Shown here: positions 276 through 15,437 of the stretch, one piece after another
How the letters are laid out: each line of letters begins with the position of its first letter
Numbering within the stretch: the first letter of the stretch is position 1
Source of the DNA: an uncultured Hyphomonadaceae bacterium
GTDB taxonomy: Bacteria; Pseudomonadota; Alphaproteobacteria; Caulobacterales; Hyphomonadaceae
Assembly (NCBI GenBank): GCA_964342455.1
Contig: CAYFGB010000010.1
Span: forward strand, 1 to 40,000
Direction: 5' to 3'
Length of the DNA stretch: 40,000 nucleotides
The notes under the pieces: model-generated
Databases searched by the model: none
Seen by the model: only the letters and a program-made list of their open reading frames with translations
Told to the model about the DNA's origin: nothing
Translations under genes and position numbers: made by a program

Positions 276-281
276 TGAATC

Positions 282-657: not shown

Positions 658-664
658 GGGGGGG

Positions 665-691
665 AAATACTAAGGGAAAATCCATGTACCG
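665..691. repeat. left terminal inverted repeat
   Basis: AAATACTAAGGGAAAATCCATGTACCG. The reverse complement of 12888-12914 reads AAATACTAAGGGAAAATCCGTGTACCG. Weaker similarity (8/11) continues for 11 more bp inward. Confidence 0.9.
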
Positions 692-797
692 CTTAGGTTT
701 TGAATGAGGTGCGTGCCATTATGGCGGACATCACTTCAACCACTTTTGCGATACTTTATTCAAGTTTCGCTGACTGTGTCAGCGCCATAAAACGGGA

Positions 798-1109
798 TTA
801 CAACTCAGGCTCACCTTTCGACATTTCATAGCTCTCACGAAATTCTCTTTGAGCATTCTCAAGTCGGTTTTTCACATCATTGAAGCGCTCGACGATACTG
901 TCCCTGTCCAAGGGAGGGGGAGGAAGGTTACTCGGCGTCAACTCTGGAGCTGGTGGCCTCATCTCAAGTTGGCGCTCCAATTCCTCTTTCTCCATTTTAG
1001 TTGCGATGTCCGGCTCTCTGTCCCTGTTATCAGTCGCGATATCAGGAGCGGTCGCATCATTAAATGCTCCACCATCGCCAGAAAGTGCGTCACCAGAATG
1101 ATCAGACAT
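798..1109 (-). CDS. hypothetical acidic, proline-rich protein (last gene of cargo operon)
   Basis: 103-aa ORF. AAGGAG lies 7 nt upstream of the ATG at 1109, and the ORF starts 12 nt after the stop of the upstream ATPase gene. No motif recognised. Confidence 0.5.
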   Translation of the reverse strand: MSDHSGDALSGDGGAFNDATAPDIATDNRDREPDIATKMEKEELERQLEMRPPAPELTPSNLPPPPLDRDSIVERFNDVKNRLENAQREFRESYEMSKGEPEL

Positions 1110-1121
1110 GAGTTTTCTCCT

Positions 1122-2651
1122 TTAAGTTGACCAGCGTTCATCGCCATTCATGTCGTCGAAATGACGCAACCGGTCCTGAAATATTGAAAGCTCCCACCAC
1201 GGGCAGCGACTCGCTTTGATCAGCTTACATCCGCTGATCTCAATCAGCTGAGCGTCCCGTGGCATATTGAGAATATCTGCGACAGGTAAACGATCCACGG
1301 CCTGCTCTCCCCCAGACGCCGAAGCCGTCCGATTATCCGCACCCTCATTGTAATGTTGGCCGTAGCGAGTAATTTTCCCCGCTCGAGCACTCAAGCGCTT
1401 TGCGGTTTCGAGACTATCTACTGAAAGGTGTTGCACCATATCTGCACTTTCGAACAAATCCTTAGTGCCTTCTTTGCCATAGCGATCAACGAGAGACTGT
1501 TCAGTCTGGCTAAACAGCCAGAATGCCAGCCCCCGCTTACGATATTGCCGAACCCAAGTTGGTAGTGCGGTCTTTGGGAATTGAGCAACTTCATCGAAAA
1601 CGAACAACACCTTTTGCGGTCCGTCCACATCAGCCAGCTGGTCAACAATAGCCGTCATCTTGCGCGCTAAATCCGCACTATTGGCCTCCAGATCGACCTC
1701 TGGGCATTGGAGGTACAAGGTTGTGGGCTCTTTTTTCAGACGCGAAACATCAAACGGAGATTTTGCGGCATCTGCACCTAACAGCGTTCCGGGGGCATAC
1801 GGCGTAAAGGCTTTGCGCAGCTTTTCCATTTTCCAATATGCCTGCTTGGATGCGCCTGAGTTCAACTCATCTTGCATCAGAAGCAAATCTTCCATGATCG
1901 CGAGACCAATTTCCGATTGGCTGATATTGTTGACCATAGTTCCGATCATATCGCTGACGGGCTGCGACAAGAACGACCGCATGGAGCGCATGTTCATTAT
2001 CTCGGGAGCATATGCAGCGCCGTACTTCAAAACGGGCTCTGCATAATCCCTCGCGCCTTCTGCAACCCAAGGAGTATCGTTTTCTCCACGTGCATTTGAT
2101 TGAGGCACGAAAGTATGCGTGATATTACTGATATAACGACATGCCGTAACCATATCGCCGCGGGCAGCGCTACTCGTAATATGCGCAAGAGGGCAAATAC
2201 CAACGCTTTCGATACCGTAAGCCCCTGATGGGTTGTTCGCGACCACATTTTGCCCAAGCCAACTTGCGCGAAAATCTGCAGAAACCCGATAATTTTCATG
2301 ACCGATATCGATAACAACAAGGGAGGTATCGTTATCAATCCACCCCAGATTTGGCTGGATGACATCGCTCCCCTTACCAATTCCCGGCTTGCCAACGGTA
2401 ACCTTGCTAAAATGGCGTGGGTGAAAAAGCATACAGTCGTGGAGCTCATCGAACCCGATATAAGCGCCACCGTTCAATAGCCCTGCAGCACGATAGTCAT
2501 CGATATCCGCAAGCCCCCCACTATCGTGCATACCTGAAGTATGCCCCTGCTCTCGAAGTCTACGTTGCTGCAGGGCAACAAATTCCCGCACTTTTCGGTC
2601 CTGATATTCACGATGCTCTTTTATCCATTGGAGCGCATTACGAAGCTTCAT
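1122..2651 (-). CDS. TraG/VirD4-family type IV coupling protein-like ATPase (soluble domain only, no N-terminal TM segment)
   Basis: The Walker A region VGKPGIGKGSDVIQPNL matches the TraG/VirD4 pattern (..SGKG..V.PNLL). Walker B is LFVFDEVAQF. The downstream segment FWLFSQTEQSLVDRYGKEG....SVDSLETAKRLSARAG resembles the conserved Q..QL...YG / TA..LS..G region. The start ATG overlaps the upstream stop codon (ATGA at 2648-2651). Confidence 0.8.
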   Translation of the reverse strand: MKLRNALQWIKEHREYQDRKVREFVALQQRRLREQGHTSGMHDSGGLADIDDYRAAGLLNGGAYIGFDELHDCMLFHPRHFSKVTVGKPGIGKGSDVIQPNLGWIDNDTSLVVIDIGHENYRVSADFRASWLGQNVVANNPSGAYGIESVGICPLAHITSSAARGDMVTACRYISNITHTFVPQSNARGENDTPWVAEGARDYAEPVLKYGAAYAPEIMNMRSMRSFLSQPVSDMIGTMVNNISQSEIGLAIMEDLLLMQDELNSGASKQAYWKMEKLRKAFTPYAPGTLLGADAAKSPFDVSRLKKEPTTLYLQCPEVDLEANSADLARKMTAIVDQLADVDGPQKVLFVFDEVAQFPKTALPTWVRQYRKRGLAFWLFSQTEQSLVDRYGKEGTKDLFESADMVQHLSVDSLETAKRLSARAGKITRYGQHYNEGADNRTASASGGEQAVDRLPVADILNMPRDAQLIEISGCKLIKASRCPWWELSIFQDRLRHFDDMNGDERWST

Positions 2652-3139
2652 CGTTGTCCTCCATGGCGATCTGTTGAACGGCCAATTGGAATTCTATCGT
2701 CCGGCAATATCCTTTTCTTTGGCGTGACATTGATGAGTGGAGGACGTTTCACACGAGGCTGTTCAGCATTTGACCGGCCAGCTTCCTTTCCTCCTCGTCC
2801 GAGTTCCCGCAGTCCATCAATCCAGCTATGGTACTGGGGCCGACCTATGAAGGAGATTGTTGCCCACGTAACCGACCAACCGAAACCTGCGCAAAGGACC
2901 GTACCCACCCACGGCCATAGAATGGGCATCAGGTTAGGGCCAATAAGAGAACCGCTAACCAACCCAATGACCGGACCGAAGAACCACCCAAACAGCTTAA
3001 ATGGACTTGATATCATGCTGTCCATAGTCAGCGAAATGGCGAAGAATGTTCCGACCAAGATGGTAGGGAGAGCTGCGATACGCAGCCCCCACAAAACTGC
3101 ATCAGCAAAAGTGACACCTGAATTTACGTCGAATTCCAT
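2648..3139 (-). CDS. small polytopic membrane protein with basic C-terminal tail (possible detached TM anchor of the coupling protein)
   Basis: Three hydrophobic segments: LRIAALPTILVGTFFAISL, FGWFFGPVIGLVSGSLIG and MPILWPWVGTVLCAGFGWSVTWATISFIG. I prefer the ATG at 3139, with GGAG 7 nt upstream, over the GTG at 3145. There is a 4-nt overlap with the ATPase gene. Confidence 0.6.
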   Translation of the reverse strand: MEFDVNSGVTFADAVLWGLRIAALPTILVGTFFAISLTMDSMISSPFKLFGWFFGPVIGLVSGSLIGPNLMPILWPWVGTVLCAGFGWSVTWATISFIGRPQYHSWIDGLRELGRGGKEAGRSNAEQPRVKRPPLINVTPKKRILPDDRIPIGRSTDRHGGQR

Positions 3140-3151
3140 AATCACGCTCCG

Positions 3152-3832
3152 CTAAAAGAGGTTCTTGATGGAAATATCGTCTGGATGGACACCAGCAGCC
3201 ACGAAGTACGTCCGGTAAGCAGCCTCAAGATTATCCAACTGCCCGATGCTCATTGCGCCTTCATCAGAGACCGGAATCCCAAGGCCAACGAGCGATACAG
3301 AACACCCCTTCAGATACTCTCGCGCTGGTGTTGCGAACTGCTTTTCGCCACTCAGAACATCCATAAGGTTGGTCTCCCGTCCGGTTTCCAGCCCATCTGT
3401 CAGCAAAATGACGGTGCTACCCGGCGAACACTGGATAGGGGCCGTTTGCAGAGCAAAAAAGATCGAGGTTTCGGAGACGGTGAACTTCTCATTTGGAATG
3501 CCCGCAATATATTCGGCCACACCACCCGCGAGCTTGGACACACGGAGTTTCCGACCTGTTGTCCAAGATTTGGGATTGAGAATATCCCAATTCCGATCTC
3601 CGATGTGCTGGAGATAAATTGTATCACCAAGCAACGCACTGTTTGCCAAAAGGCTTGAAACCGACGCAGCTGCACGTTGCGCGTACGCTTCATTCTGCAC
3701 CAATGGAACACTTCCCGTCACATCAAGGAAGACGTAGTGGTTTGCCGGGGTCGAACGACGATCCGTCGCATTTGCCAAACCCGATGTAGCGAGTGCAAGA
3801 CCGAGGCAAAGCATCACAAAAATATTCTTCAT
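3152..3832 (-). CDS. secreted protein with VWA-like (MIDAS-variant) motifs
   Basis: Start set at MKNIFVMLCLGLALATSGLANA, a signal peptide, with an AAGGA RBS and 2 nt after the upstream stop codon (3837-3839). FLDVTGSV (DxTxS), ETSIFF and ILLTDGLET follow the order of VWA metal-site motifs. The fold assignment is tentative. Confidence 0.55.
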   Translation of the reverse strand: MKNIFVMLCLGLALATSGLANATDRRSTPANHYVFLDVTGSVPLVQNEAYAQRAAASVSSLLANSALLGDTIYLQHIGDRNWDILNPKSWTTGRKLRVSKLAGGVAEYIAGIPNEKFTVSETSIFFALQTAPIQCSPGSTVILLTDGLETGRETNLMDVLSGEKQFATPAREYLKGCSVSLVGLGIPVSDEGAMSIGQLDNLEAAYRTYFVAAGVHPDDISIKNLF

Positions 3833-3836
3833 AGTT

Positions 3837-4838
3837 TTAGTCCTTCTTATTGCTGTAAAGGTCGAGGGGATATGCGCCGTGCTCAGCAGCATGGGCCAAT
3901 GTCGGGCGATCCAATGCGCGAAACCGGCGACACAGATTTTCCAGAGCACTGAAGCTGACCGCTTTCAGTCCTTTGTCGGTTGGGAGTATGGCATCGCCTG
4001 TATCTGCCGCGAGGCACTTCTCAGCGAGCGCCTCCTCCAGAGCGCTTGCGAGTGGTTCAATGGCCTCCGAAACAACACTGCCCGTGTCGTCGAAACTCCA
4101 TTCTGGCAAAAGTTGCTCGCGGGCTGTCTGGAGATGATTGAGCTTGCTGGCCGTTTCTCGTGCTTCGCGCAAAACCGCACGTCCTTCAGCGAGTTTAGGC
4201 CAGTCCTCCCAAGCTCGCCGAGCGAGACCAAGCATCAACGAGATCATTGAAGACACCAGCGCGAAGCTTAACAGCGGAAAGCCGAACAAAGTCAGGCTAA
4301 ACCAGCCGGCTCCAATCTGAGCCGCCAATTCCGCAAGAGACTTATCGAACCATCCGTCACCCTCTTCTGGCGCTGTCGCCAGACCGAGACCAAGATCAGT
4401 CGGCTCATTTGCAGCGATCAATCCGTCCGCGATATATGGACCCAGACTTGCGGCGATAAGCCCGCCCAAACCCAGCAATGTCCCGATAACGAACAGCCGC
4501 ATAAGATTCGCGACAATAACCGAGGATTGTTTGTTGGCTTCATGCAGAAATGCATGCGCAGCAATGAAGGCAAAAAATGCAAGGCTGGCAGCGACGACCA
4601 TTCCGAGAGGATTGGATGAGTCATCAACGCCCAATACTGGCGGGAAAGCCGCTTCAAAGGCTGCTAAAATCAGTTTGGCATCCACCATAGTGACGCACGC
4701 AATTGCACCGCACAGAAAGAGGGCTGCTGCAGCTCTAACTGGAGCAAAGCGACCAGCCTTTTGGAGGTCGTATGCAAATTGCTCGATGCATGCCTGAGCG
4801 GCCAGAAGAATGGCTGGTTCTTTGGTGTTGAACTCCAT
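3837..4838 (-). CDS. polytopic membrane protein, function unknown
   Basis: 333-aa ORF with at least 4 hydrophobic helices and a C-terminal helical soluble region. The GGAGG RBS is embedded in the end of the upstream gene. Confidence 0.55.
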   Translation of the reverse strand: MEFNTKEPAILLAAQACIEQFAYDLQKAGRFAPVRAAAALFLCGAIACVTMVDAKLILAAFEAAFPPVLGVDDSSNPLGMVVAASLAFFAFIAAHAFLHEANKQSSVIVANLMRLFVIGTLLGLGGLIAASLGPYIADGLIAANEPTDLGLGLATAPEEGDGWFDKSLAELAAQIGAGWFSLTLFGFPLLSFALVSSMISLMLGLARRAWEDWPKLAEGRAVLREARETASKLNHLQTAREQLLPEWSFDDTGSVVSEAIEPLASALEEALAEKCLAADTGDAILPTDKGLKAVSFSALENLCRRFRALDRPTLAHAAEHGAYPLDLYSNKKD

Positions 4839-4840
4839 GG

Positions 4841-5209
4841 CTACACCTCCCGACCTGCGCGCGCACGCTCGCGGATACGGTCCAGAAAGCCTTTTTCAGG
4901 GTTCACCTGCGTCAATCCATAGAGCATACGGATGCGATGATGGGCGTCTTCGATCTCGGCATCGATTATAGCCACTTGATGCGCTCGCAGTCGGCGGGCC
5001 TCATCATGGAGGCGTGATATCAATCCCGCAGGCGGGATCGTCAGTTTTTCTACGCTGGCGGACAGCTTGTGTTTCAATGCCTCAAATTGCGAATTGTCTG
5101 CATCAATCGGTGCCCAAGCATTCTCTGCCGAACTCTTTTGTGCCGATGATGAATTCGTCTGAGCGAAATCCTCTTCAAACGAGCCAAACCCCTTCATGTC
5201 GTCGGGCAT
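4841..5209 (-). CDS. hypothetical protein (first gene of cargo operon)
   Basis: I prefer the ATG at 5209 (GGGGAG 8 nt upstream) over the GTG at 5218. The C-terminal half looks helical or coiled-coil. No motif recognised. Confidence 0.45.
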   Translation of the reverse strand: MPDDMKGFGSFEEDFAQTNSSSAQKSSAENAWAPIDADNSQFEALKHKLSASVEKLTIPPAGLISRLHDEARRLRAHQVAIIDAEIEDAHHRIRMLYGLTQVNPEKGFLDRIRERARAGREV

Positions 5210-5468
5210 AAGCCGCACTCCCCTGTTCGGGCCCGCGTCAAGCGGTCCGTTGTTGCCGTTTCAATGGGATAATTCCCAGTCACAAGAGAGGTGGGGATTG
5301 TCGAATCTTGGACGCACAAGCGGCCTGATCTGTCACTATCGGTATTACAGCCTGCCCAGTTACGTGAGCTGCGTAATGGGGCGATCCTTCTCCCGACAAA
5401 AGACGTTCATGACCTGCCTCACCTCTGAAAGCAGAGTGTGCACATCATTAGGTATCCTGTCAAGTTTT

Positions 5469-5494
5469 AGATATCCAATTGTATTTGGATATCT
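5469..5494. promoter_or_regulatory. inverted repeat AGATATCCAA-ttgtat-TTGGATATCT (candidate operator)
   Basis: Perfect 10-bp arms. A half-site AGATATCCAAA recurs at 6347-6357, upstream of the 261-aa gene. Confidence 0.45.
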
Positions 5495-6278
5495 AATTAT
5501 GGACTCGACCGGCTAGTTTTTGATTGGAAGGTGTTGGATTAATTCCGACTTCAGCCAGCAAGTCCTGAGGTACTTGATAGCCTTTGCGGATTGCTGCCAG
5601 AAAAAGCTCTCTGGTCATCCATTCGGTTCTGTTGCCGCCTGCTTCTCGGTCTGCAATTGAATTAAATAATTCGATGACTCGTGCATCAACTTTGAAAGAC
5701 AGGTTCTTTTTCCGTACATTTCGGTGATGTTCGGGAGGCAAGTCAGGACATGGAAGCTCCTGTCTCTTTCGCACTCTTCGCTGCGGCTTCTGGCTCTGCA
5801 AGCTATTAGTGATCTGATCGTACAATATTAAATGGTAATAATTTGAATCAATATCCCCCAATAAATTTACATACTTGTCGCTAATCGCAAGAAAGTCTTG
5901 AATATCGTAGAATTCTTCAGAGCGATAACTATCAATAGAATGCGCTAAATCTTGCATTATATCTGCTGATATTCTTTCAAGTGATTTAGTCTGCAAAACT
6001 AACGGCCAAATCTCATCCAAAATCACGGGAGGTTGTCGTCCCTGAATGAGTTCACCGGTTACGGTTTTTTGAAAGTCAGCAGGAATTCGCGACAAAACTT
6101 CGTCGGATAGTTGCCAAATATATGCTTGAAATTCTATTTTGGTGCGAAGCCGACGTTTTCGAAAACCTGAGCGGTCCACCTCTTCGAAACTTCTTTCAGC
6201 AATATCCAGATGTCGCTGATATCTGTCTTCGCCACTGATGGAATCCTCAGATTGAGTAAAGTCAGTTATATTGTCCAT
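5493..6278 (-). CDS. hypothetical protein with C-terminal ribbon-helix-helix-like segment
   Basis: 261-aa ORF with a GGAGAAG RBS and visibly AT-richer codon usage than its neighbours. KNLSFKVDARVIELFNSIADREAGGNRTEWMTRELFLAAIRKG has a strand-helix-helix layout like CopG/Arc-type repressors. The RHH call is tentative. Confidence 0.5.
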   Translation of the reverse strand: MDNITDFTQSEDSISGEDRYQRHLDIAERSFEEVDRSGFRKRRLRTKIEFQAYIWQLSDEVLSRIPADFQKTVTGELIQGRQPPVILDEIWPLVLQTKSLERISADIMQDLAHSIDSYRSEEFYDIQDFLAISDKYVNLLGDIDSNYYHLILYDQITNSLQSQKPQRRVRKRQELPCPDLPPEHHRNVRKKNLSFKVDARVIELFNSIADREAGGNRTEWMTRELFLAAIRKGYQVPQDLLAEVGINPTPSNQKLAGRVHN

Positions 6279-6346
6279 GATGTTGTGCTTCTCCAGTCCT
6301 GAAGCTTCGATTCGAGGCTTTAGTCAGCATATACACAATTATTAAT

Positions 6347-6357
6347 AGATATCCAAA
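6347..6357. promoter_or_regulatory. AGATATCCAAA half-site upstream of the 261-aa gene
   Basis: Same 10-mer as the arms of the 5469-5494 inverted repeat. It lies about 70 bp upstream of the start at 6278. Confidence 0.35.
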
Positions 6358-6619
6358 CGAGACTGTGTGCATAGGTGGTTTCACTCGTCTTTTAGGTGCA
6401 TGACAGCGCCGAAAGTAGCCACCGTTGATCTGGCTACATCAAGTTTAGTTCTTCAGTCGCGCTGAAAAGGCGCCGCGGATGCCTCAGGGGCTCCGCGGAC
6501 AATTGCTTGATGGTCATAGCTCTCAGTTGATCACATCAGCTGTCCGACGAGCGCGCTTTGATCTGCGCACCGGGTTCGCATCGCGCAAGATCGGCTTGGT
6601 GGTTTAATCAACTTCAACA

Positions 6620-6892
6620 CTATGCCGATTTATAAAAGCTGTCTGGCTTCTGTTCCTGTTTGGGCGGGGCATCCAGATGAACGGCAGCCCTCAGAAGAGC
6701 TTCCCTTTGATCGGGCCAAATTTTTTGCAATTCATTAAACGCGGCGAGGCGAGCTATTTGAATGTCTCTAGGGTTTCGAGGGCGTTTGGTCTTGTGGTCA
6801 TAGCTCTCGGTAAGTCTGAGCTGTTGTCTGACCAGCTCCCTTCCGTCTGCGTAGACCGGGCCATACGCATTGCTGCTATTCGATTTAGCCAT
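6620..6892 (-). CDS. hypothetical small protein
   Basis: I prefer the start MAKSNSS at 6892 (GGAGGGA RBS 6 nt upstream) over the ORF-track start at 6940. No motif recognised. Confidence 0.4.
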   Translation of the reverse strand: MAKSNSSNAYGPVYADGRELVRQQLRLTESYDHKTKRPRNPRDIQIARLAAFNELQKIWPDQREALLRAAVHLDAPPKQEQKPDSFYKSA

Positions 6893-6995
6893 ATCACTTC
6901 CCTCCGAAACTATGCGGACATATCCACTCCATTGCTGCACTTAGAAAAAAGTGCTCCTCGAAATCTCAATCGTCAAGGGAAAAAAGGCCGTGTTA

Positions 6996-7012
6996 AATAT
7001 CATAATGATATT
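6996..7012. promoter_or_regulatory. 17-bp palindrome AATATCATAATGATATT (candidate operator, copy 1)
   Basis: Perfect palindrome around a central base. Its reverse complement is identical to copy 2 at 7069-7085. Confidence 0.5.
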
Positions 7013-7068
7013 AATGGTGCAAATAAGGTGTAATATTCACTAACGTTTGACGCCCGTAAGTTCTTATA

Positions 7069-7085
7069 AATATCATTATGATATT
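7069..7085. promoter_or_regulatory. 17-bp palindrome AATATCATTATGATATT (candidate operator, copy 2)
   Basis: Same site as 6996-7012, with centres 73 bp apart. It lies in the spacer between the cas1 stop and the 90-aa gene. Confidence 0.5.
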
Positions 7086-7258
7086 TAATAACTTTCAATG
7101 GTCACGAAGGTGGAGTTTTCGGTAGGGGCTATATCTGTCAGATGAGGTGAGTATTGAGCGCTCAAATTCAGGCACGAAGCCTTAGATTGCGCAAGCAAAC
7201 TATGAGAGCTTATTCCCAGATATGTAAAAGAACCAACTCAATGGGTGGCAGCAGCTTG

Positions 7259-8314
7259 CTACAATTGGCCAGAACACAGACAGGCCCCAACTGATAAAAT
7301 GGCCGCCAGCTTCGCCGACAGCCTGCACATTCCATCTTGTCGGATGTAAAAGTCTTTCACTGTGAACCGTTCATTCAGTGCAAACTCCAACACAGCCTTA
7401 TCGACTTCAGGCCTATGTGGTTCAATGAGGTCCAACACATAGGAAGGGCGCTCTTCATAATTGCCATGAAAGATGCCGAAGTTCGGATCGTATCCGTGCG
7501 CCACCACGTCTAGTCGAATTTGAGATTCCAGAACCGCATAGCCATAGTTCAACATGGCATTGATGGGGTGATCCGCCTTTCGGTTACGCGCATTCTTACC
7601 TGCAATATTGGATGACCGTTTTGAATAGCTGAGCCATGGCGTTGGAACAGGATGTTGATTAATGCCCTTCCACCTCAACTCCAATCCGTTCCAGACATCG
7701 AAGTACCGTGCGGCAGCAACGCCTTCGATGCCCCGCAAGGCATCGACGCTGTCGGCTTCTCCATTTGCAATCTTGTGAAGGCCTTTCTCGGCCCAGATTT
7801 CCGCTTCGCGCCTCACCTCTGACGGCGGAAAAATTTCCCGTAATGTCACAAGGCTCGCTTCGAGCTTTCGTCTCACCAAAGCAGCACAAAAATCGAGACG
7901 TTTTTTCGGGTCATTTCGAATGGCAATTTGTTCCTGTAGTCTGACTGCGCAGATTGCGCCTTTTGATCCTCCGACAATGGCGCTGACTTTTCCCTTATAG
8001 GAGAGGTTCAAAAGCACCACGTCTTGAGCTTCCAGCCAGTCCAAAACAGCAAGCGTAATTGCGCCGGATGTTTCGATAAAAATGATGCGTTCTGGAATAG
8101 CCATTTCACCGGGATAAAACCGCCAGAACTTTTTCTCCTCGCTCGCATAGCTGCGCCCATTCTCAATTTCGAGTGCACCATTTCTGATGCGCAATTGGAC
8201 GCCATGTCCCGTCAAAATCAGTGGGTGCTTTCTTCGATGTCTGGCAAGCGTTTTAGGTTCCAGTTTTTCCGCTTTATTTTCCCAATACGCACAGCGCGAA
8301 TCCCAAGTGTCCAT
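7259..8314 (-). CDS. cas1: Cas1-family integrase (solo Cas1, casposase-like)
   Basis: 351 aa. The N-terminal beta domain is LILTGHGVQLRIRNGALEI...IIFIETSGAITLAVLDWLEAQDVVLLNL. The helical catalytic domain has LRGIEGVAAARYF (Glu), KADHPINAMLNYGYAVL (His) and GYDPNFGIFHG.....SYVLDLIEPHRPEVD (acidic residue). Order and spacing are typical of Cas1 (PF01867-type). Confidence 0.9.
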   Translation of the reverse strand: MDTWDSRCAYWENKAEKLEPKTLARHRRKHPLILTGHGVQLRIRNGALEIENGRSYASEEKKFWRFYPGEMAIPERIIFIETSGAITLAVLDWLEAQDVVLLNLSYKGKVSAIVGGSKGAICAVRLQEQIAIRNDPKKRLDFCAALVRRKLEASLVTLREIFPPSEVRREAEIWAEKGLHKIANGEADSVDALRGIEGVAAARYFDVWNGLELRWKGINQHPVPTPWLSYSKRSSNIAGKNARNRKADHPINAMLNYGYAVLESQIRLDVVAHGYDPNFGIFHGNYEERPSYVLDLIEPHRPEVDKAVLEFALNERFTVKDFYIRQDGMCRLSAKLAAILSVGACLCSGQL

Positions 8315-8571
8315 TTTCGACTCATTTTCTAGATGATTTATTCCTCAAGAAAATCATAGCAAAAATGTAGCCGAAAACTTAGAGAAAACGAGTTCCTTAT
8401 TGGAATAAAATGCACCAATAATTTATTTATGTTTTTTATGTCAAATTAATTCTCAGTATCTAATCTCAAAAAATGAACTCTATATTTACTGTATACATAC
8501 TATTGGCGCTAATTTTGCATGAATTTTCTCGGTAGTCCCGATACGGGACAGTTCAGAGATGAGTTTCGACC
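8315..8571. promoter_or_regulatory. AT-rich divergent control region between cas1 and the HTH-HNH-polB operon
   Basis: 257 bp, much more AT-rich than the surrounding DNA. It contains the inverted repeat ATGATTT-N11-AAATCAT (8333-8357) about 19 bp upstream of the cas1 start. It also contains hairpin GTCCCG-ata-CGGGAC (8535-8549) 22 bp upstream of the HTH gene start. No promoter hexamers are called. Confidence 0.5.
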
Positions 8572-9084
8572 ATGCCAAGGAAAACGAGTAAGAAGCGGTA
8601 TCGCTGGACGCGAAGCAAAGCGAATGAGCGCTTCGCTGCACTGCCAACGGAACGCAGGAGAGCCTATAGACTTGCTTTTCTGAGTGTGAAGAAAGGCGCG
8701 AGCATTACTAAAGCAGCTAGAGACTTTCACGTGGACCGTGAGAACCTCTCCTCATACGTCATAGCGAATTCACGGTTCAGGAGGAAGAAGGGTGGAAAGC
8801 TCAAAATCCTTCAGGATAAGCGTGTCGTGCCAAGAAGCGTTGTCACCACTGGCGGCTTGCTTCGACTCTCCATGAGTGCCGACCAAATCGAGAAAATCAG
8901 CGCACACAATCGCGATGTCGAACGCGAACGGCAGAACAAACAAGTTGGTGTTTTGGCGAAATGGGAAGGTGAGCAGGTCAGAGACACCGATGGTAATCGG
9001 TATGATTTGCTCTTTTCCAGAGAGGAATTGTTTGAAGTTCTACCGCCTAATGAAGCGCGGGATGACAATTACGACGAGGCGTAA
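8572..9084 (+). CDS. helix-turn-helix DNA-binding protein
   Basis: 170 aa. GASITKAARDFHVDRENLSSYV looks like a classical HTH. The gene ends 1 nt before the HNH gene start. Confidence 0.6.
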   Translation: MPRKTSKKRYRWTRSKANERFAALPTERRRAYRLAFLSVKKGASITKAARDFHVDRENLSSYVIANSRFRRKKGGKLKILQDKRVVPRSVVTTGGLLRLSMSADQIEKISAHNRDVERERQNKQVGVLAKWEGEQVRDTDGNRYDLLFSREELFEVLPPNEARDDNYDEA

Positions 9085-9085
9085 C

Positions 9086-9922
9086 ATGTCAGGGTTTCAA
9101 ACAGCAAAAGAAACGCACAAGCGCGCCACGCAGTCAGCACGGCGCGAACGCCAGCTTAAAATGCGGGGTCATGCTTGCTACATGTGCGGTGTTGAAGACC
9201 CCGAACTTCTGAAACTCGTCTATCTCGATGAGAAGAACATGTGGGACAAGTCGGAGGCTGTGCTGTGTCGTAACCACCGCCAGCTTCTTACCGTTTATCA
9301 AAACGCGGAAAAACTGCCTCAAGGGTTCCGACCCAACAGCAATGTAACCGTTTTCGATGCGCTATACATGGAAGCCAGCTTCGCTGACATGAACCGCCAA
9401 TCCTCCCTCAATAATCATAAGCAGTTTGCTGCTGAACATGTTGACCAAACGCTTCAACTTTCAAATCTGATTGAAGACCATTCGATACTCAAAAAGCGCC
9501 TGAAGAAGGCGATGAAGAAAGACCCATTTGGAACTCACGCAGATTGTTATTGTGCGATTTGCCATGAAGTGAGGCCAATGGTTCTGGAAGCTCATCATGT
9601 GGACAGGGAGGGGCTATCCGAGCGAGCCATTATTCTCTGTCATAACCATCATGACCTTGTCTCAATTGAGCAAAGATATCACCCCGACAAAGACGCGCTC
9701 CTATCGCTTGCGGATGACTATCGCGATTTTGTTGCTCAACGCCTTGGGATGGATGTTCTCGAAAAATTAGCTGCAATGCAGAAAGAGGCGACATCCAAAG
9801 TTCTATTCGATGATGCCATTCTGATGGCAAAAATTCACCAACTCGCAAATTCGCCGGATGCCGAGCTATCTGCAGAAGAATTTGAGGAAATGCTGGTTCC
9901 GGGTGTGGTAAAATGGAGCTGA
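9086..9922 (+). CDS. HNH endonuclease-domain protein (two Cys/His modules)
   Basis: Start moved to MSGFQT at 9086, because the ORF-track extension 8876-9085 overlaps the HTH gene. Module 1 is CYMCG...LCRNHRQL. Module 2 is CAICHEV..LEAHHVD......LCHNHHDLV. The stop overlaps the polB ATG by 10 nt. Confidence 0.75.
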   Translation: MSGFQTAKETHKRATQSARRERQLKMRGHACYMCGVEDPELLKLVYLDEKNMWDKSEAVLCRNHRQLLTVYQNAEKLPQGFRPNSNVTVFDALYMEASFADMNRQSSLNNHKQFAAEHVDQTLQLSNLIEDHSILKKRLKKAMKKDPFGTHADCYCAICHEVRPMVLEAHHVDREGLSERAIILCHNHHDLVSIEQRYHPDKDALLSLADDYRDFVAQRLGMDVLEKLAAMQKEATSKVLFDDAILMAKIHQLANSPDAELSAEEFEEMLVPGVVKWS

Positions 9923-12867
9923 AGCTTCGCGCCTTCGTAACACCTGAGAAAGGATTTAAGGGCTCGCGGCGAAAGCCATTTCCCAGACATCGCAGTGGAC
10001 GGACACTAACTTTCGATTGCGAAACACGCACAGACGCATCACAGCGTTTGCGGTTCGGAGCATATCGCATTGATGACGAGCCAGATGAGAATGGTGAAAC
10101 ACTCGTCTCCGAGGGCTTGTTTTACGATGAAGGCGGACTGGAAGACGGTGAGCTCGAAACACTGAAAGAGTATGCCCATTCTGAAGGTTTGCCGATTCTC
10201 AGCTATCAAGAATTCAGTGAAGAGATATTGCTCAGCCAATGTTACGAGCTGTCAGGCACAATAATCGGCTTCAACCTACCATTCGATTTGTCGCGCCTAG
10301 CCGTCAATGCATCCCCTTCCCGTAGATACAAGAACGATGACCGTTTTGAGAACGGCATTACGCTTCATCTTTTGCCCAATCAAAAGTATCGCGGAAAAGT
10401 TCGCGTTGGTCATGTAAACGCCAATCGGTCACATCTCTCATTCTACAAGGAGTTTGACTCCTACTATTTCGGCAACTTCATCGACGTGAAGACGCTCGGC
10501 ACTTCGTTGTTGTCCGGCACGTCCAGCCTTGCATCGGTTGCGAAGGCACTCGGAGTTTCGCATGAAAAAATGGAGACAGACGAGCACGGCAAGACGCTCA
10601 CGCGGGATTATATCGAATACGCCCGAAACGATGTGACCTGCACGTGGGAGTGCTATTGCGAACTGCTCACGCGACTAGGCACCCATGCGTTTGACGATTT
10701 AGACGATATGCAGGTCAACAGCGAAGCAAGCATAGGAAAAGCGTATCTTCGAGACTTCGGCATTCTGCCTTGGCGACAAGTCCAACCGAATTTTCCGCCT
10801 GAAATCACCGGCAAGATTATGAGTAGCTATTTCGGCGGTCGGACAGAAGTTCGTATTCGCCGGGACATCCGCGAAGTGTTCTATGCAGATTTCCTGTCCA
10901 TGTACCCAACGGTAAATGCGCTCATGGGGTTGTGGAAGTTCGTCATTGCGGAAGGCGTGGACTATGACGAGAGCGAAGACGCGAAATCTTGGACGACGGA
11001 GTTTCTTGAAAACGTCACCGGGGGAGATTTTCAATGCCAAGAGATTTGGCGAGACCTGCCGACGCTGGTTCAAGTTAAGCCTGATGATGACGTCCTTCCC
11101 ATTCGGGCTGATTTCGCAGATTCAGGCACAACCAATATCGGCATTAATCACCTGACATCTGACGCGCCGCTTTGGTTCACGCTCGCCGATTGCGTCGTGT
11201 CCAAACTGTTGACGGGCAAAACTCCGAAAGTTGAACGCGCAATTCGGTTCAGCCCAAAGTTACCTCAACATGGCCTGAAAACGAAAACACTACTGGGTCA
11301 AACGGACGGCGTGATTGACCCCTATAGTGACGACTTTTTCAAACGATTGATTGAAGAGCGCGCCAAACTGAAGGCGGCGAAGAACTCAGCGGCAGGTGAA
11401 GAAAAAGCCCGTCTGAAAATTGCAGAGAAAACCGTCAAGATTATTGCTAATGCGGCAAGCTACGGGCTCTTCATTGAGTTGAACCCGAAAGACTATCCAG
11501 AACCTCAAAGCGCTATTCGTTATGGGTTTGAGGTTGAGCCGCACGCGTTCGAAACCAAGACACTTGAGATACCCGGAGAGTATTTCCACCCACTTTTGGC
11601 AACCTGCATAACAGGTGCGGCTAGGCTCATGCTGGCGCTGGCTGAATGGCGCGCTGCGCAGCACAAAATAAACTGGACGTTCTGTGACACAGACGGACTG
11701 GCACTCGCAAAGCCAGACCATATGGAAAGAGCGGATTTTCTCACCAAATGTCGTGATGTTCTCGATTGGTTTAAACCGCTCAATCCATATGACGGGCAAG
11801 CTGGAATTTCTGTCCTTGAGCCCGAGGAAGAGAACTTCCACCCTGATTACGAAGTTGAAAAATCCAATCCTGATTGGACGCAGCTCCAACCTCTTTATTG
11901 CTATGCTGTTTCAGCGAAACGCTATGTCCTGTTCAACGAAATTGATGGCGACATCAATATCAGAAAATCTTCAGCTCACGGACTTGGCTATTGGGCGACA
12001 CCCTTTGGGGAGTTTGATGAAACTGCTGGTGAGTGGGAATGGCGCTTGGCACTTTGGGAGCACATCATCAAAGCTGCCAGAGAAGACAAAGATGATGAAA
12101 TCGACCTCTCGAAAGACGACCGCTTCAATCTAGCTGCAGCCGGACAATCAACCATTACGCGTTGGGATCAATTCCAATGGTATGCCCGATACAATGCGCA
12201 ACAAGCCACAGGCCATGGCCCGATTGATGATTATCGAAACGGTATTCAGCCGTTCAATTTCTTCCTTCGATTTCTGAACAAAGCTCATGACCGTGTTGAT
12301 GACACGAATCCAGATGTCGAAATCTGGCGTGCAATTGTTGGCCGGGAGCCAAAGCTTGCAGCGCCGTTCGATAAAGACTTGGGAACTGCAGCCTCACAAC
12401 TTTTCGACATTGAAGCCCAAACGAACGACGCGACAGAGGCGATTGATTTTTCGCCTTGGCTTCGGTCCTTCAGCGATAGGTTTTCCGACTATAATCTCCA
12501 TCGCGAAAACAAGTTCGCCGATTGTCAGGTCCACACAAAAGGACTTCTTCAGAGAAGGCACGTTCAAGCGAGCGGATTTGCGCACATCGGTAAGGAAAGC
12601 CATGATTGGGACGAAACACTTGTCCCGTGGGCCAATGAAAGCGGCGGAATTAGTTTCGGAACGTCCAATCTCGACACAGCATCAAAGCGGGACATCATCT
12701 TGAACGCATTGAGCAAAGGAACGTGCAGCTCAAATCAGCTTGTTCGGATGACGGGCGTTTCCAAAACCACGATGAGCCACTTGAAGCAGGGCAAACCTAT
12801 TCCACTGTCCAGCCTAGCGAAACTCCATGACGCGGTGATGTCGTTGCTGCACGCCGAAACGGTCTAG
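9913..12867 (+). CDS. polB: family B DNA polymerase with 3'-5' exonuclease domain and C-terminal HTH
   Basis: ExoI is FDCET (D at 10015). ExoII is GFNLPFDLSRL (N at 10273). ExoIII is YARNDV (Y at 10618). Motif A is YADFLSMYPT (D at 10888). Motif B is KIIANAASYGLF (11437-11472). Motif C is FCDTDGLAL (DTD at 11687-11695). A KxY motif, SAKRYVL, is also present. The C-terminal segment NQLVRMTGVSKTTMSHLKQGKPIPLSSL looks like an XRE-type HTH. Confidence 0.9.
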   Translation: MELKLRAFVTPEKGFKGSRRKPFPRHRSGRTLTFDCETRTDASQRLRFGAYRIDDEPDENGETLVSEGLFYDEGGLEDGELETLKEYAHSEGLPILSYQEFSEEILLSQCYELSGTIIGFNLPFDLSRLAVNASPSRRYKNDDRFENGITLHLLPNQKYRGKVRVGHVNANRSHLSFYKEFDSYYFGNFIDVKTLGTSLLSGTSSLASVAKALGVSHEKMETDEHGKTLTRDYIEYARNDVTCTWECYCELLTRLGTHAFDDLDDMQVNSEASIGKAYLRDFGILPWRQVQPNFPPEITGKIMSSYFGGRTEVRIRRDIREVFYADFLSMYPTVNALMGLWKFVIAEGVDYDESEDAKSWTTEFLENVTGGDFQCQEIWRDLPTLVQVKPDDDVLPIRADFADSGTTNIGINHLTSDAPLWFTLADCVVSKLLTGKTPKVERAIRFSPKLPQHGLKTKTLLGQTDGVIDPYSDDFFKRLIEERAKLKAAKNSAAGEEKARLKIAEKTVKIIANAASYGLFIELNPKDYPEPQSAIRYGFEVEPHAFETKTLEIPGEYFHPLLATCITGAARLMLALAEWRAAQHKINWTFCDTDGLALAKPDHMERADFLTKCRDVLDWFKPLNPYDGQAGISVLEPEEENFHPDYEVEKSNPDWTQLQPLYCYAVSAKRYVLFNEIDGDINIRKSSAHGLGYWATPFGEFDETAGEWEWRLALWEHIIKAAREDKDDEIDLSKDDRFNLAAAGQSTITRWDQFQWYARYNAQQATGHGPIDDYRNGIQPFNFFLRFLNKAHDRVDDTNPDVEIWRAIVGREPKLAAPFDKDLGTAASQLFDIEAQTNDATEAIDFSPWLRSFSDRFSDYNLHRENKFADCQVHTKGLLQRRHVQASGFAHIGKESHDWDETLVPWANESGGISFGTSNLDTASKRDIILNALSKGTCSSNQLVRMTGVSKTTMSHLKQGKPIPLSSLAKLHDAVMSLLHAETV

Positions 12868-12887
12868 CTTTCTAGCCAACACCCAAC

Positions 12888-12914
12888 CGGTACACGGATT
12901 TTCCCTTAGTATTT
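12888..12914. repeat. right terminal inverted repeat
   Basis: CGGTACACGGATTTTCCCTTAGTATTT, the reverse complement of 665-691 with one mismatch. It begins 20 nt after the polB stop. Confidence 0.9.
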
Positions 12915-12922
12915 ACCCCCCC

Positions 12923-12936
12923 TCCTTGGAAAGGAG
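12923..12936. repeat. right copy of putative target-site duplication (TCCTTGGAAAGGAG)
   Basis: Identical to 640-653. It sits inside a third copy of the host hairpin (12916-12943) that lacks the ACCTCACCCC part of the DUF559 flank. Confidence 0.7.
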
Positions 12937-12958
12937 AGGGAGGCGCTGAACTTTAACG

Positions 12959-13204
12959 TCAATCCTCTTCACCCAACGCCGCAAGTTTCGCCTGAACGCG
13001 GCCCCGGTTTTTCGTTGCGATAGCAACATATTGGCTAGCGCCCGCCGCTTCAAAAACCTCAAGCGCCGCGTCAGTACACGCAATCGAGCGCTGATAATTG
13101 TCTCTTTGGTTCTCGCCCTTGTCGCCCATCGTTTCGTAAAGTACTGCCAGATTTGCCTGCGCCGTGCCTGAAACTATCCCGCTCCTGCCGTTTTCATGCC
13201 GCAT
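12959..13204 (-). CDS. small TPR-like protein or fragment
   Basis: 81-aa ORF. ANLAVLYETMGDKGENQRDNYQRSIACTDAALEVFEAAGASQYV resembles the terminal repeats of TPR proteins. It may be a remnant. Confidence 0.35.
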   Translation of the reverse strand: MRHENGRSGIVSGTAQANLAVLYETMGDKGENQRDNYQRSIACTDAALEVFEAAGASQYVAIATKNRGRVQAKLAALGEED

Positions 13205-13302
13205 CAGTGGGGCATGTGTTTTGCGCGTGCAAATGAGTAGGCATTTGCGATGAATGCCGTTAGGACGTTAAGGATGACTGATATGACAACGCCCCGGGGG
13301 AA

Positions 13303-13821
13303 TTGATGGAAGCGGTCAGCGACGACAAAGGCTCAATCTACGAACAATTGGTGCGGTTCACCCGGACGCACGCCCCACCACAGACAGCCACGCGGCGAAG
13401 CCGGGTCCGGCCCGCCAGCCGTATGGAAATGTATATTGCGGCGGGAATGCTGGCGCTGCCCATCATACTGATCATTCTGAACGGTCTGATCGCGGGCGAT
13501 TCCTTTATTGGTGACATTCTGAATTTTGGCCTGATGGGCGTTTTTCTGGTCGGCATTGTCTACGCCCTGTCCGTGGCCGGATCGATGATCCTGTCGAAAC
13601 GCGGCAGTCCGCCTGCCGTCAAATGGGTCGCCGCTGTCGTGCTGGAACAGGATACGCGGTTCGATGAGGGCATTCCGGTCGATTATGTTGTGCTCGAGCT
13701 TGAAGACGGAAGGCGGGTGACCCTGAAAACGGATAGCGATACCTCCGACAGGGCTCAGATGGGTACGATTGGCTGGGCCAATATCGAAAAGTCCACACTC
13801 GTCCGTTTCGTGGCTGAGTGA
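13303..13821 (+). CDS. membrane protein, function unknown
   Basis: 172 aa with two hydrophobic helices followed by a soluble C-terminal domain. Its stop overlaps the GTG of the next ORF. The antisense ORF 13333-13836 is judged a shadow ORF. Confidence 0.5.
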   Translation: MMEAVSDDKGSIYEQLVRFTRTHAPPQTATRRSRVRPASRMEMYIAAGMLALPIILIILNGLIAGDSFIGDILNFGLMGVFLVGIVYALSVAGSMILSKRGSPPAVKWVAAVVLEQDTRFDEGIPVDYVVLELEDGRRVTLKTDSDTSDRAQMGTIGWANIEKSTLVRFVAE

Positions 13822-13826
13822 GCGGT

Positions 13827-14492
13827 ATGAGAACACGGGTCAAAGTCTGCTGTATTTCGTCAGAGGATGAAGCGCGCCATGCGATCCGCGCCGGCGTTGA
13901 TGCTGTGGGTCTCGTCGGTCGCATGCCGTCTGGCCCAGGCCCGATTTCCGACAAGAAAATCGCCGAGATTGCCCGCGCCATTCCGCCAGCCGTCAGCTGT
14001 TTTCTGCTGACCTCGGAAACCACGGCGTCCGGCATTGCCGAGCATTTGCTGCGGACGGGCGTTTCCACCATTCAGCTGGTTCAGCATCTCTCGATCGCGG
14101 AAACCATGGCGCTCGACCGGGTGCTGCTGTCAACGCGGCGTGTGCAGGTCATCCACATGGAAGACGAAAGCGCGCTCGATCTGATCGATAAGTATGAGCC
14201 CTATGTGCATGCCTTCCTGCTCGACTCCGGGCGTCCGTCGGCTGACACACCGGAACTGGGCGGTACGGGCCGCACACATGACTGGGAATTATCGCGCCGG
14301 TTTGTCGAGAAATCGAAAAAGCCCGTTTTCCTGGCCGGTGGGCTGACCCCGGAAAACATTCAGGACGCGATTCTCAAGGTCCGGCCATTTGGTGTGGATG
14401 TCTGTACAGGCGTGCGAAATCAGGGCCATCTGGACCCGAAACGCCTCGAAGCCTTCATGAGCGCGGTGCGGATGGCGGACCGGCATCGCTAG
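13827..14492 (+). CDS. trpF: phosphoribosylanthranilate isomerase-like protein
   Basis: RVKVCCISSEDEA (compare KICGIT), ELGGTGRTHDW, VFLAGGLTPENI and FGVDVCTGV follow TrpF (PRAI) motif order. The start could be the GTG at 13818 or the ATG at 13827. Confidence 0.7.
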   Translation: MRTRVKVCCISSEDEARHAIRAGVDAVGLVGRMPSGPGPISDKKIAEIARAIPPAVSCFLLTSETTASGIAEHLLRTGVSTIQLVQHLSIAETMALDRVLLSTRRVQVIHMEDESALDLIDKYEPYVHAFLLDSGRPSADTPELGGTGRTHDWELSRRFVEKSKKPVFLAGGLTPENIQDAILKVRPFGVDVCTGVRNQGHLDPKRLEAFMSAVRMADRHR

Positions 14493-14501
14493 CCTGTCCG
14501 G

Positions 14502-15437
14502 TCAGATGCCTGCCCGATCCAGTAGCCGCTTGAACGCGGCCCAGAATTGTTCGCGAATGTCATCTGTTTCCATCAGGATCTCGTGACGGGAGTGTTCAAT
14601 GAAGATCCGCTCCACATTTGTCAGATGTCGTGAGACGCGATGATGGCTGTCATTATCCACCAGGGCTTCCTCGCCCGCTGTCGCGATCATCACCGGGCAG
14701 GTGACATGCTCCAGCGCACCGGGTTTGGCAAACCGGTCAATCACATCAAGCGAAGCCGAAAGCCAGTTCCATGTGATGGGGCCGAGTTCCAGTTGAGGTG
14801 AGGCCTCAATCAGCTGTTCGTTGATCTCCCAGCGCTCGCGGCTATGCGTGACGAAGTTTTCCTCGAATGTGGTTCGCGGGGTCGGCTTGACGGCAAACAT
14901 ATTCCCCCGTCCAAGCGTGCGCATGGCCCAGGCAAGGTATTTCATGCCCATGAACCGGTCCTTCAGCCCCCACATGGGCGCAGAAAATGCGGCGGCTTCC
15001 ACCTTCACCATTTGCTGCGTGATAGCCGCCAGCGCAATCGCTCCGCCCATGGAATGGGCCAGCGCGACGTGAGGCCTTGGAAGCGTTTCGTTTTGTTCGT
15101 CCAGCGCCTTGCTCAACGCATTCATGAAGGTCGAGAAATTGTCGATATGGCCTTTCAGGGCATCTGGCAGCAGCCTGTCTGACAGGCCCTGGCCTGGCCA
15201 GTCCAGAATGAGGACAGCAAAGCCCATATCCTGCAATTCGCGCCCGACCTCGAAATATTTCTCAATATATTCCGTGCGTCCCGGACAGACGATAACGGTG
15301 CCGCGCGCTGCTTTGCCTGCAATGCCTGGCGCAACACACATACGGAGACGTCGGCCCTTGGCGCCGCGCAGCCATCTGACCTGCGCGCCAACGGGTGGTG
15401 GGTTGCCCTCAATTTCTACGAAATGATCTGAGGACAA
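14502..15437 (-). CDS. alpha/beta hydrolase (lysophospholipase-like)
   Basis: 311 aa with the nucleophile elbow AHSMGG and an HG-type oxyanion region (VIVCPGRTEY). Confidence 0.75.
   Translation of the reverse strand: MSSDHFVEIEGNPPPVGAQVRWLRGAKGRRLRMCVAPGIAGKAARGTVIVCPGRTEYIEKYFEVGRELQDMGFAVLILDWPGQGLSDRLLPDALKGHIDNFSTFMNALSKALDEQNETLPRPHVALAHSMGGAIALAAITQQMVKVEAAAFSAPMWGLKDRFMGMKYLAWAMRTLGRGNMFAVKPTPRTTFEENFVTHSRERWEINEQLIEASPQLELGPITWNWLSASLDVIDRFAKPGALEHVTCPVMIATAGEEALVDNDSHHRVSRHLTNVERIFIEHSRHEILMETDDIREQFWAAFKRLLDRAGI

Follow-up and report, generated by a model that had tools for sequence, protein, structure and literature searches.

What does a Cas1 protein do in a stretch of genome that carries no CRISPR array? 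The question is raised by an open reading frame (ORF) at 7259–8314 on the minus strand of contig CAYFGB010000010.1 (assembly GCA_964342455.1), from an uncultured Hyphomonadaceae bacterium, of which the first 40,000 nucleotides were analysed and are called the window here. The adaptation machinery of CRISPR has been proposed to descend from casposons, and we conclude, with a probability of roughly 0.88, that this ORF is the casposase of an intact-looking family 3 casposon, a self-replicating type of transposon, that occupies positions 654–12922 between convergent host genes of a marine alphaproteobacterium. A first-pass annotation had described a CRISPR-independent, active Cas1 in a mobile element near polB, in effect a casposase, and the alignment, the fold and the window context all support that description.

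The Cas1 protein

The 351-residue ORF runs from ATG to stop without interruption. Residues 34–335 match the Pfam family Cas_Cas1 (PF01867; E 7.8e-36; 124 bits, cut-off 22.3). TIGR00287, the generic equivalog model for cas1, is also matched, at E 1e-31 (110 bits, cut-off 71.7). The protein falls far below the cut-offs of all eight subtype-specific Cas1 models (e.g. 77 against 385 for type I-C and 82 against 120 for type II). Its AlphaFold2 model, made with an alignment of 43 homologs (mean predicted local distance difference test, pLDDT, 89.6; predicted template modelling score 0.86), consists of the N-terminal β domain expected by the first-pass annotation (strands at 32–114) followed by a helical catalytic domain. 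Foldseek matches this model to many Cas1 and casposase structures with a probability of 1.00. The closest fold is the casposase of Methanosarcina mazei (PDB id: 6OPM; E 9e-19, template modelling score 0.73), which ranks ahead of all CRISPR Cas1 structures, the second place being taken by a type I-C Cas1 (E 1.8e-14). Compared by sequence, the same casposase again ranks first among solved structures (E 1.1e-16), and the runner-up has E 7e-12.

The catalytic residues of the M. mazei enzyme are E162, H232 and E247 (PMC6977970; numbering in the deposited 6OPM chain is offset by +17), and they align with E197 (in GIEG), H283 (in GIFHG) and E298 (in LIEP) of the window protein, so the catalytic triad as read from the alignment is E197/H283/E298. 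Alignment to characterised casposase and Cas1 proteins thus leaves the E/H/E(D) triad intact. E197, H283, D295 and E298 are invariant among the 43 homologs, and H249 and N252 are conserved in at least 90% of them. The first-pass annotation had listed the motifs GIEG (195–198), DHPINAMLNYGY (248–259) and LDLIEPHRP (294–302) in this order, which is correct, but it had placed the catalytic histidine in the second motif. That residue, H249, three positions ahead of the conserved N252, pairs with a methionine in 6OPM and is not the catalytic histidine. The opinion that the enzyme looks active rather than decayed survives this change of residue, and the protein is best described as a genuine Cas1 that, judged by its sequence, is apparently active.

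A helix-turn-helix (HTH) domain of the casposase type, which had been proposed as something to look for at the C-terminus, is absent from both the 6OPM alignment and the AlphaFold2 model. The alignment ends at chain residue 298 of 431, the window protein ends at residue 351, about 80–110 residues before HTH-bearing casposases do, and the model holds a single helix (334–348) after the catalytic domain. The protein is a minimal form without HTH or zinc-finger extension, and some of its homologs carry N-terminal zinc fingers or long C-terminal extensions. Loss of the HTH inactivates the M. mazei casposase (PMC6977970), but the Cas1 proteins of HenMar-C1 and StrAlb-C1 are reported to lack one (PMC4046053) and family 1 casposases are active in vitro without it (PMC8464041), so its absence is no argument against a casposase. 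Outside the Pfam Cas1 range, the first 30 or so residues (1–30; 8225–8314) form an N-terminal helix whose W4, R7 and W11 are shared by all of the 30 closest homologs; this helix might serve in DNA binding or oligomerisation in place of the absent HTH.

Ends, core and surroundings of the element

Gene calls were taken from an identical Tara Oceans scaffold. The cas1 gene is enclosed by terminal inverted repeats (TIRs) and these, in turn, by two copies of a target-site duplication (TSD):

640–653, left TSD copy, TCCTTGGAAAGGAG, 14 bp; 19 bp (635–653) if the whole exact direct repeat is counted
654–702, plus strand, left TIR, G11 followed by AAATACTAAGGGAAAATCCATGTACCGC; 49-nt arms, 88% complementary to 12877–12925
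703–7258, cargo block
7259–8314, minus strand, cas1 (casposase), 351 residues; catalytic E197, H283 and E298, plus D295 and N252
8315–8571, intergenic region dividing cas1 from the divergent g170–g278–polB operon; 257 bp, 31.5% GC
8572–9084, plus strand, g170, conserved small core protein with orthologs in the same position in loci L006 and L087–L089 (34–36% identical)
9086–9922, plus strand, g278, conserved core protein with HNH-like Cys/His motifs
9913–12867, plus strand, polB, family-B DNA polymerase (PF03175), 984 residues, C-terminal HTH at about 926–973 (HTH_26)
12877–12922 (or 12925), minus strand, right TIR, ending in CCCTTAGTATTTA and then C7
12923–12936, right TSD copy, TCCTTGGAAAGGAG; the exact repeat starts at 12918

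The left end reads ...CCAA CCCCC TCCTTGGAAAGGAG G11 AAATACTAAGGGAAAATCCATGTACCGC... and the right end ...CCGGTACACGGATTTTCCCTTAGTATTTA C7 TCCTTGGAAAGGAG AGGGAGGCGCTG.... The maximal exact direct repeat is 19 nt long (635–653 and 12918–12936), and because the element ends in a G-run the boundary of the duplication is ambiguous between 14 and 19 bp. The shorter value is favoured since exactly 14 nt lie between the C-run and the G-run both in the window and at the junction of its sister element L091 (see below), since 14 is also the smallest maximal TSD among well-bounded relatives, and since the TSD of the M. mazei casposon is 14 bp (PMC4779613, PMC6977970). The favoured element is therefore 654–12922, 12,269 bp long, with a 14-bp duplication, and the reconstructed target site is CCAACCCCCTCCTTGGAAAGGAGAGGGAGG. 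The insertion is intergenic, between a convergent DUF559 gene and the ORF g81; with a GC content of 0.495, the element lies below the 27 kb around it (0.56). All of the roughly 12 ORFs of the element are uninterrupted. As the first-pass annotation had it, cas1 reads leftward from roughly the middle of the element (midpoint of the gene 7786, centre of the element 6788).

No CRISPR-like repeats or array and no other cas gene are found in the 40-kb window, and the small proteins of the element match neither Cas2 nor other Cas models, which bears out the first-pass annotation on the lack of CRISPR context. The genes flanking the element have housekeeping functions. Upstream of a serine-pathway gene cluster lies a serC leader RNA (118–170, minus strand; Rfam RF00517, 43 bits, E 2e-6), and since this leader is of the alphaproteobacterial type it fits an alphaproteobacterial host.

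The DUF559 gene next to the insertion (282–623, a Vsr-like endonuclease) is itself located between two similar hairpins (238–264 and 635–657) with CTCCTT..AAGGAG arms, the downstream one being the casposon target. The window holds three occurrences of this motif, where 0.02 would be expected. In loci L040 and L052, too, homologs of DUF559 are found near the casposon.

Placement in family 3

The window protein was compared with the Cas1 sequences aligned in the supplement to the work in which casposons were defined (PMC4046053). Its best match is HenMar-C1 of family 3 (42.5% identity, E 6e-92, 268 bits), and two further family 3 proteins, NitAL212-C1 and AceAut-C1, are 29% and 31% identical to it (131 and 114 bits). 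The casposases of M. mazei (family 2; 25% identity, E 2.9e-19) and Candidatus Nitrosopumilus koreensis (family 1; 22.5%, E 4.8e-14) are more distant. A neighbour-joining tree, a quick distance tree without support values, places the protein inside family 3 beside HenMar-C1. Published hosts of family 3 include Henriciella, Hyphomonas and Citromicrobium (PMC4779613), and the same three genera are among the relatives that we retrieved. From the similarity to HenMar-C1, the position in the tree and the shared host genera, the element is, by sequence comparison, a new member of the already known family 3.

The window element and HenMar-C1 have in common a Cas1 without fused HTH or zinc finger, an alphaproteobacterial host, TIRs and an intergenic insertion. 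A long PolB is shared with HenMar-C1 and the alphaproteobacterial family 3 casposons in general (Henriciella marina, Hyphomonas sp. CY54-11-8, Citromicrobium bathyomarinum; PMC4046053, PMC4779613), and g278 and g170 would be the counterparts of their adjoining HNH-type and HTH-type genes. The layout of the ends is the same as well, with a hairpin followed by GGGGATAAGGG in HenMar-C1 and a hairpin, a G-run and (T)AAATACTAAGGG in the window. However, the window element is smaller (12.3 kb, compared to 16.3 kb), has a VirD4-like ATPase and membrane proteins in place of the Cas4-helicase fusion, and carries its hairpin copies as exact direct repeats, i.e. as a TSD, whereas HenMar-C1 was published with the hairpin inside the TIR.

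MetMaz-C1, the family 2 casposon of M. mazei (6OPM; PMC6977970, PMC10359463), provides the best structural match, has the catalytic triad in the same positions and a 14-bp TSD, and its transposon 3' ends also finish in CCC (TIR GGGATATAGG). MetMaz-C1 is also known to insert in tandem, using the target once it has been regenerated (PMC10359463). It differs in that its enzyme is archaeal, only 25% identical and equipped with an essential C-terminal HTH of about 100 residues, and in its target, a 5'-CGCA motif at a tRNA-Leu gene or an intergenic site rather than a GC-rich hairpin. The N. koreensis casposase (PMC8464041) is similarly minimal and HTH-less (347 and 351 residues) and integrates site-specifically, but it belongs to a thaumarchaeal host, is accompanied by a protein-primed PolB, has a 13-bp TSD inside the EF-2 gene and is only 22.5% identical. 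CRISPR Cas1 proteins (type I-C, 8D3P; Synechocystis, 7CR6) have the same two-domain fold and catalytic residues, and integration duplicates the target, which is often palindromic, in both systems. Unlike them, the window protein has no Cas2 partner, array or effector genes, its duplication is 14 bp and not 25–50 bp, and it scores lower against them, by structure and by sequence, than against the casposase, missing the subtype cut-offs.

Relatives of the element

A scan of one genome per species yielded at least 240 loci that encode relatives, nearly all of them in Alphaproteobacteria, and an exhaustive profile search gave 155 clusters (50% identity) at E ≤1e-30. At E <1e-20, no member of this Cas1 family was found on plasmids. 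Neighbouring genes were compared in 80 related genome loci (L006–L085). In 66 of the 80, the strand opposite to cas1 encodes a PolB homolog roughly 2 kb upstream of it, and in most of the others the contig ends on the PolB side. The exact four-gene core is common to the four closest relatives. In about 30 relatives, TIRs enclose 7.5–19 kb.

The most informative relative is L091 (positions 1–13005 of Tara SAMEA6042536 scaffold_4820). Its core is 91% identical to window positions 7316–12925 and its left TIR also matches, and homology is confined to that TIR and to a core stretch that begins 57 nt within the 3' end of cas1 and runs as far as the right TIR. All of the cargo has been exchanged (window 703–7315, L091 6145–12177), and the last 19 or so residues of Cas1 differ (351 compared to 357 residues). 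With genes for Asn_synthase-like and Transglut_core3 proteins and a 55-residue ORF, the cargo of L091 looks like a lasso-peptide cluster. The two ends of the contig (51–1233 and 11824–13005) are 99.9% identical over 1,183 nt, so the contig is one unit of 11,773 bp closed on itself, with no host flank. The closing junction reads ...GTATTTA C10 TCCACCGTAGCAGA G11 TAAATAC..., that is TIR–14 nt–TIR, and is found at 401–500 and 12178–12268. Two structures would give such a contig, a circular form and a tandem array joined head to tail; an array of three different tandem casposons was considered and rejected in view of the 99.9% identity of the contig ends, which fits one wrapping unit. For MetMaz-C1, a circular intermediate with one TSD was proposed but not detected, and tandem insertion was observed (PMC10359463). 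The different cargo and the junction of L091 are signs of recent activity in this lineage.

Cargo is freely swapped among these casposons, defence genes included; none of the window cargo genes is present in L006–L085. Inside the TIRs, L089 carries a Zorya-like operon of ZorA-like, OmpA and HNH proteins with YfbU (11151–15106), L087 a NERD–UvrD helicase (1613–3475), and L073 a SMEK–NACHT STAND NTPase, a TIR-domain protein and a radical-SAM/SPASM enzyme (3369–5551 and 11117–15565). The large ORF of L073 had been considered as a Cas4-helicase fusion of the HenMar-C1 type, which was rejected once it was seen to encode the SMEK–NACHT NTPase.

Alternative explanations

Several observations weigh against an intact family 3 casposon. 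Its TIR arms are 88% matched, and the hairpin at its target is only moderately stable (z = −1.5 as RNA, −0.44 as DNA). For g278 and g170, the assignment as HNH and HTH proteins comes from weak matches and motifs, and the structure model of g278 is unusable. The M. mazei casposase requires the HTH that the window Cas1 lacks (PMC6977970), although the family 1 enzyme works without one (PMC8464041). Via the exact DUF559 protein no empty site was found, since all seven of the seven contigs carry the casposon; in the metagenome contig collection, the DNA pattern of the empty site and further copies of the window TIR had no matches (0 in both cases). The survey for CRISPR loci had the 40-kb window as its scope.

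Much of this would also be expected of a fixed relic, in which the sequence of Cas1 is conserved while the copy is immobile or Cas1 has been co-opted for another role. The single insertion context in all public contigs with the flanking DUF559 gene, the lack of an empty site or second copy in the collections searched, the imperfect TIRs and the missing HTH all agree with such a relic. We nevertheless regard it as unlikely, given that none of the roughly 12 ORFs is interrupted, that the catalytic residues of both Cas1 and PolB are intact, that the TSD copies are identical over 19 nt, which suggests a fairly recent insertion, and that the cargo of the sister element L091 (91% identical) is another one and its junction of the circle or tandem type; as for the HTH, the family 1 casposase is active in vitro without it (PMC8464041). 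Far less probable still, and already close to refuted, is that this Cas1 is a trans-acting adaptation enzyme of a distant CRISPR–Cas locus whose polB neighbourhood is coincidental. The confinement of the survey to the window leaves room for such a locus, and the generic TIGR00287 cut-off is reached (110 bits, compared to 71.7), but every subtype-specific cut-off is missed, the 40 kb are free of cas2, arrays and other cas genes, 66 of 80 relatives have PolB, rather than cas2, as the conserved neighbour, the nearest relatives by structure and by sequence are casposases, and cas1 is enclosed by TIRs and a TSD. Of the three explanations, the intact-looking family 3 casposon accounts best for the locus.

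Core genes

According to the first-pass annotation, an AT-rich divergent promoter region separates cas1 from polB. The region at 8315–8571 is indeed AT-rich and divergent, but it is not all that lies between the two genes, since g170 and g278 head the polB operon, and a simple consensus scan of these 257 bp gave no sigma-70 promoter-like site, so that a promoter there is conjectural.

The g170 protein is probably a DNA-binding protein of the HTH type, as hinted at by HTH_psq matches (E 0.13, sub-threshold) in three of five orthologs. A probable HNH endonuclease, recognised at the level of motifs, is encoded by g278, whose orthologs have invariant CxxC..CxNH and CxCxxC..HHVDRE..LCxNHH motifs. 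Below threshold, it matches five HNH PHROGs (E 0.003–0.09) and the RecA_dep_nuc and AI2M HNH families (E 0.06–0.36); a profile search of solved structures gave nothing meaningful, and the homolog search for its structure model (pLDDT 42.6) returned four near-identical sequences. PolB matches PF03175 (1.3e-5) and a PHROG DNA polymerase (3e-13), both weakly, and HTH_26 (2e-4). It has kept the Exo I motif, motifs A and C, KxY and a stretch that resembles motif B, and it has no match among solved structures. A family 3 PolB would be expected to be PolB3-like (RNA-primed) and to branch from the PolBs of family 2 casposons. A C-terminal HTH in PolB was noted for family 2 casposons too (PMC4046053). 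With an HTH-less Cas1, recognition of the target and of the ends would be either intrinsic to Cas1 or supplied in trans by g170 or the PolB HTH.

At the border of cargo and core, the palindrome ATATCAT[A/T]ATGATAT is present in two copies 73 bp apart (6993–7015 and 7066–7088), which together make an inverted repeat (6993–7088) of 23 nt with 96% complementarity. Promoter-like sites overlap the palindromes (7047–7076 on the plus strand, 7105–7078 and 7034–7005 on the minus strand), and the two copies look like a repressor operator pair.

Cargo genes

The left half of the element, its exchangeable part, contains the following genes:

798–1109, minus strand, g103, 103 residues; Tara gene call, no Pfam, PHROG or PADLOC match
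1122–2651, minus strand, VirD4/TraG-like (type IV coupling protein-like) ATPase, 509 residues; PF02534 (1.3e-21), PF12696 (5.8e-17)
2648–3139, minus strand, g163, two transmembrane-like segments, overlapping the ATPase gene at its start; 37% identical (E 5e-9) to its L086 equivalent
3152–3832, minus strand, g226, predicted to be secreted, N-terminal hydrophobic leader; 31% identity (E 4e-20) to a gene of the L086 module
3837–4838, minus strand, g333, four hydrophobic transmembrane-like segments (hydrophobicity scan)
4841–5209, minus strand, g122; Tara gene call
5493–6278, minus strand, g261; Tara gene call, sub-threshold matches only

PADLOC matched no known defence system in the window cargo, and g226, g333 and g122 have no family match in Pfam, PHROG or PADLOC. 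The VirD4-like ATPase has no transmembrane-like segment, is about 25% identical to plasmid VirD4 proteins, and has only two metagenomic proteins as close relatives; g163 may be its detached membrane anchor. The module at 1122–4838 resembles L086 (7630–11560), a non-casposon island adjoining MmeI (restriction) and Fic genes. Both consist of a four-transmembrane-like protein, a secreted protein, a two-transmembrane-like protein and a VirD4-like ATPase without transmembrane segments, with the homologs of the ATPase (44% identity), g226 (31%) and g163 (37%) in the same order. A conjugative casposon that uses the VirD4-like gene was considered and rejected, as the similarity to plasmid VirD4 is about 25% and the module also exists outside casposons. 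Among the other genes of the element, Pfam matches no relaxase or other type IV secretion protein.

Target sites across the family

Ends were resolved to the base pair in 24 relatives, or 25 elements with the window. In 21 of the 24 the terminus is GG(G)GTATAG (GGGGTATAG-type), which resembles the published TIRs of MetMaz-C1 (GGGATATAGG), MetArv-C1 (GGGGATAATG) and NitAL212-C1 (GGGGTATGTT) and the TATATCCC-3' end bound in the crystal of the M. mazei casposase (PMC6977970). The terminus of the window element and of the relatives closest to it is a variant, in which a G-run leads into (T)AAATACTAAG or ATAAAGCTAAG and GTGTACCG lies some 25 nt deeper inside; the type with a G-run, ATAAAGCTAAG and GTGTACCG is found in L006, L087 and L091. 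A terminal CCC-3' is common to the window element, the end in the M. mazei crystal (TATATCCC) and the published TIRs of families 2 and 3.

The maximal TSD is at least 14 nt long in 23 of the 25 elements. Reconstructed empty sites fold better than shuffled sequences (z ≤−2) in 17 of the 25, and several are textbook intrinsic terminators, such as AAAAGGCCCCGGCTTTCGCTGGGGCCTTTT in L076 (Ruegeria atlantica). Fifteen elements have a stem of at least 4 bp inside the exact TSD, and in all 15 the asymmetric loop has the same, direct orientation at both ends, so the hairpin is a duplicated host target and not a part of the inverted repeat. The outer stem, with an A-tract on one side and a T-tract on the other, is present only once. 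These data suggest that the common target of the relatives is a GC-rich hairpin, which is a testable target rule. In the literature searched, whose coverage did not extend to the 2017 casposon review, no link between casposons and terminator or hairpin targets was found.

HenMar-C1 was published with a 37-nt TIR (the hairpin plus GGGGATAAGGG) and a TSD of 1 nt (PMC4046053). The equivalent hairpin behaves as a direct repeat, i.e. as a TSD, in most relatives. The published HenMar-C1 hairpins, however, have one mismatch as inverted repeats and three as direct repeats, and because they match better when inverted, reading the hairpin as a TSD may not fit every member.

L050, L069 and L077 have T-rich, non-palindromic duplications of 14–15 bp that overlap GTTC-N7-GTTC or GAAC-N7-GAAC direct repeats and may represent a second target type. 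Both forms of this repeat resemble the alphaproteobacterial LexA (SOS) box.

Proposed mechanism and meaning

By homology with characterised casposases, Cas1 oligomers would bind both ends of the transposon, whose 3' strands finish in a C-run, and the 3'-OH groups, together with the E197/H283/E298 metal site, would attack the target strands 14 bp apart, with gap repair giving rise to the 14-bp duplication TCCTTGGAAAGGAG. Copying and processing of the element would presumably fall to the co-transcribed PolB together with the proteins of HNH-like and HTH-like type, and the terminal G-runs of the element may rebuild a hairpin at each junction.

A broader and distinctly more tentative proposal, one that we would sooner doubt than rely on, is that alphaproteobacterial family 3 casposases are hairpin-directed integrases which duplicate a 14-bp hairpin core, and that L091 is a circular excision product. 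GC-rich, terminator-like palindromes may then be chosen as targets, and each junction would, by way of the G-runs, rebuild a hairpin that can be targeted again. L091 (11.77 kb, one TSD copy) would be the circular form that was predicted and went undetected for MetMaz-C1 (PMC10359463), and the published description of HenMar-C1 (37-nt TIR, 1-nt TSD) would need re-reading for most members of the clade. Arrays of repeat, element and repeat with a palindromic TSD would be nature's analogue of the step by which CRISPR repeats are proposed to have arisen.

Taken alone, the finding is of moderate interest; most worth attention are the family-wide target pattern and the circle-or-tandem contig L091. 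To our knowledge, the biochemistry of casposases comes so far solely from archaeal enzymes of families 1 and 2, and no characterised bacterial family 3 casposase was found in the literature searched. The window element offers a compact, HTH-less bacterial casposase with clear ends and a defined 14-bp target, and the comparative set of at least 240 species-level genomes with the Cas1–PolB core and about 25 elements with resolved ends outweighs this single copy in importance. Casposons of this group ferry defence systems and other cargo among Alphaproteobacteria, and their suggested preference for GC-rich hairpins parallels the palindromic repeats that are duplicated by Cas1–Cas2.

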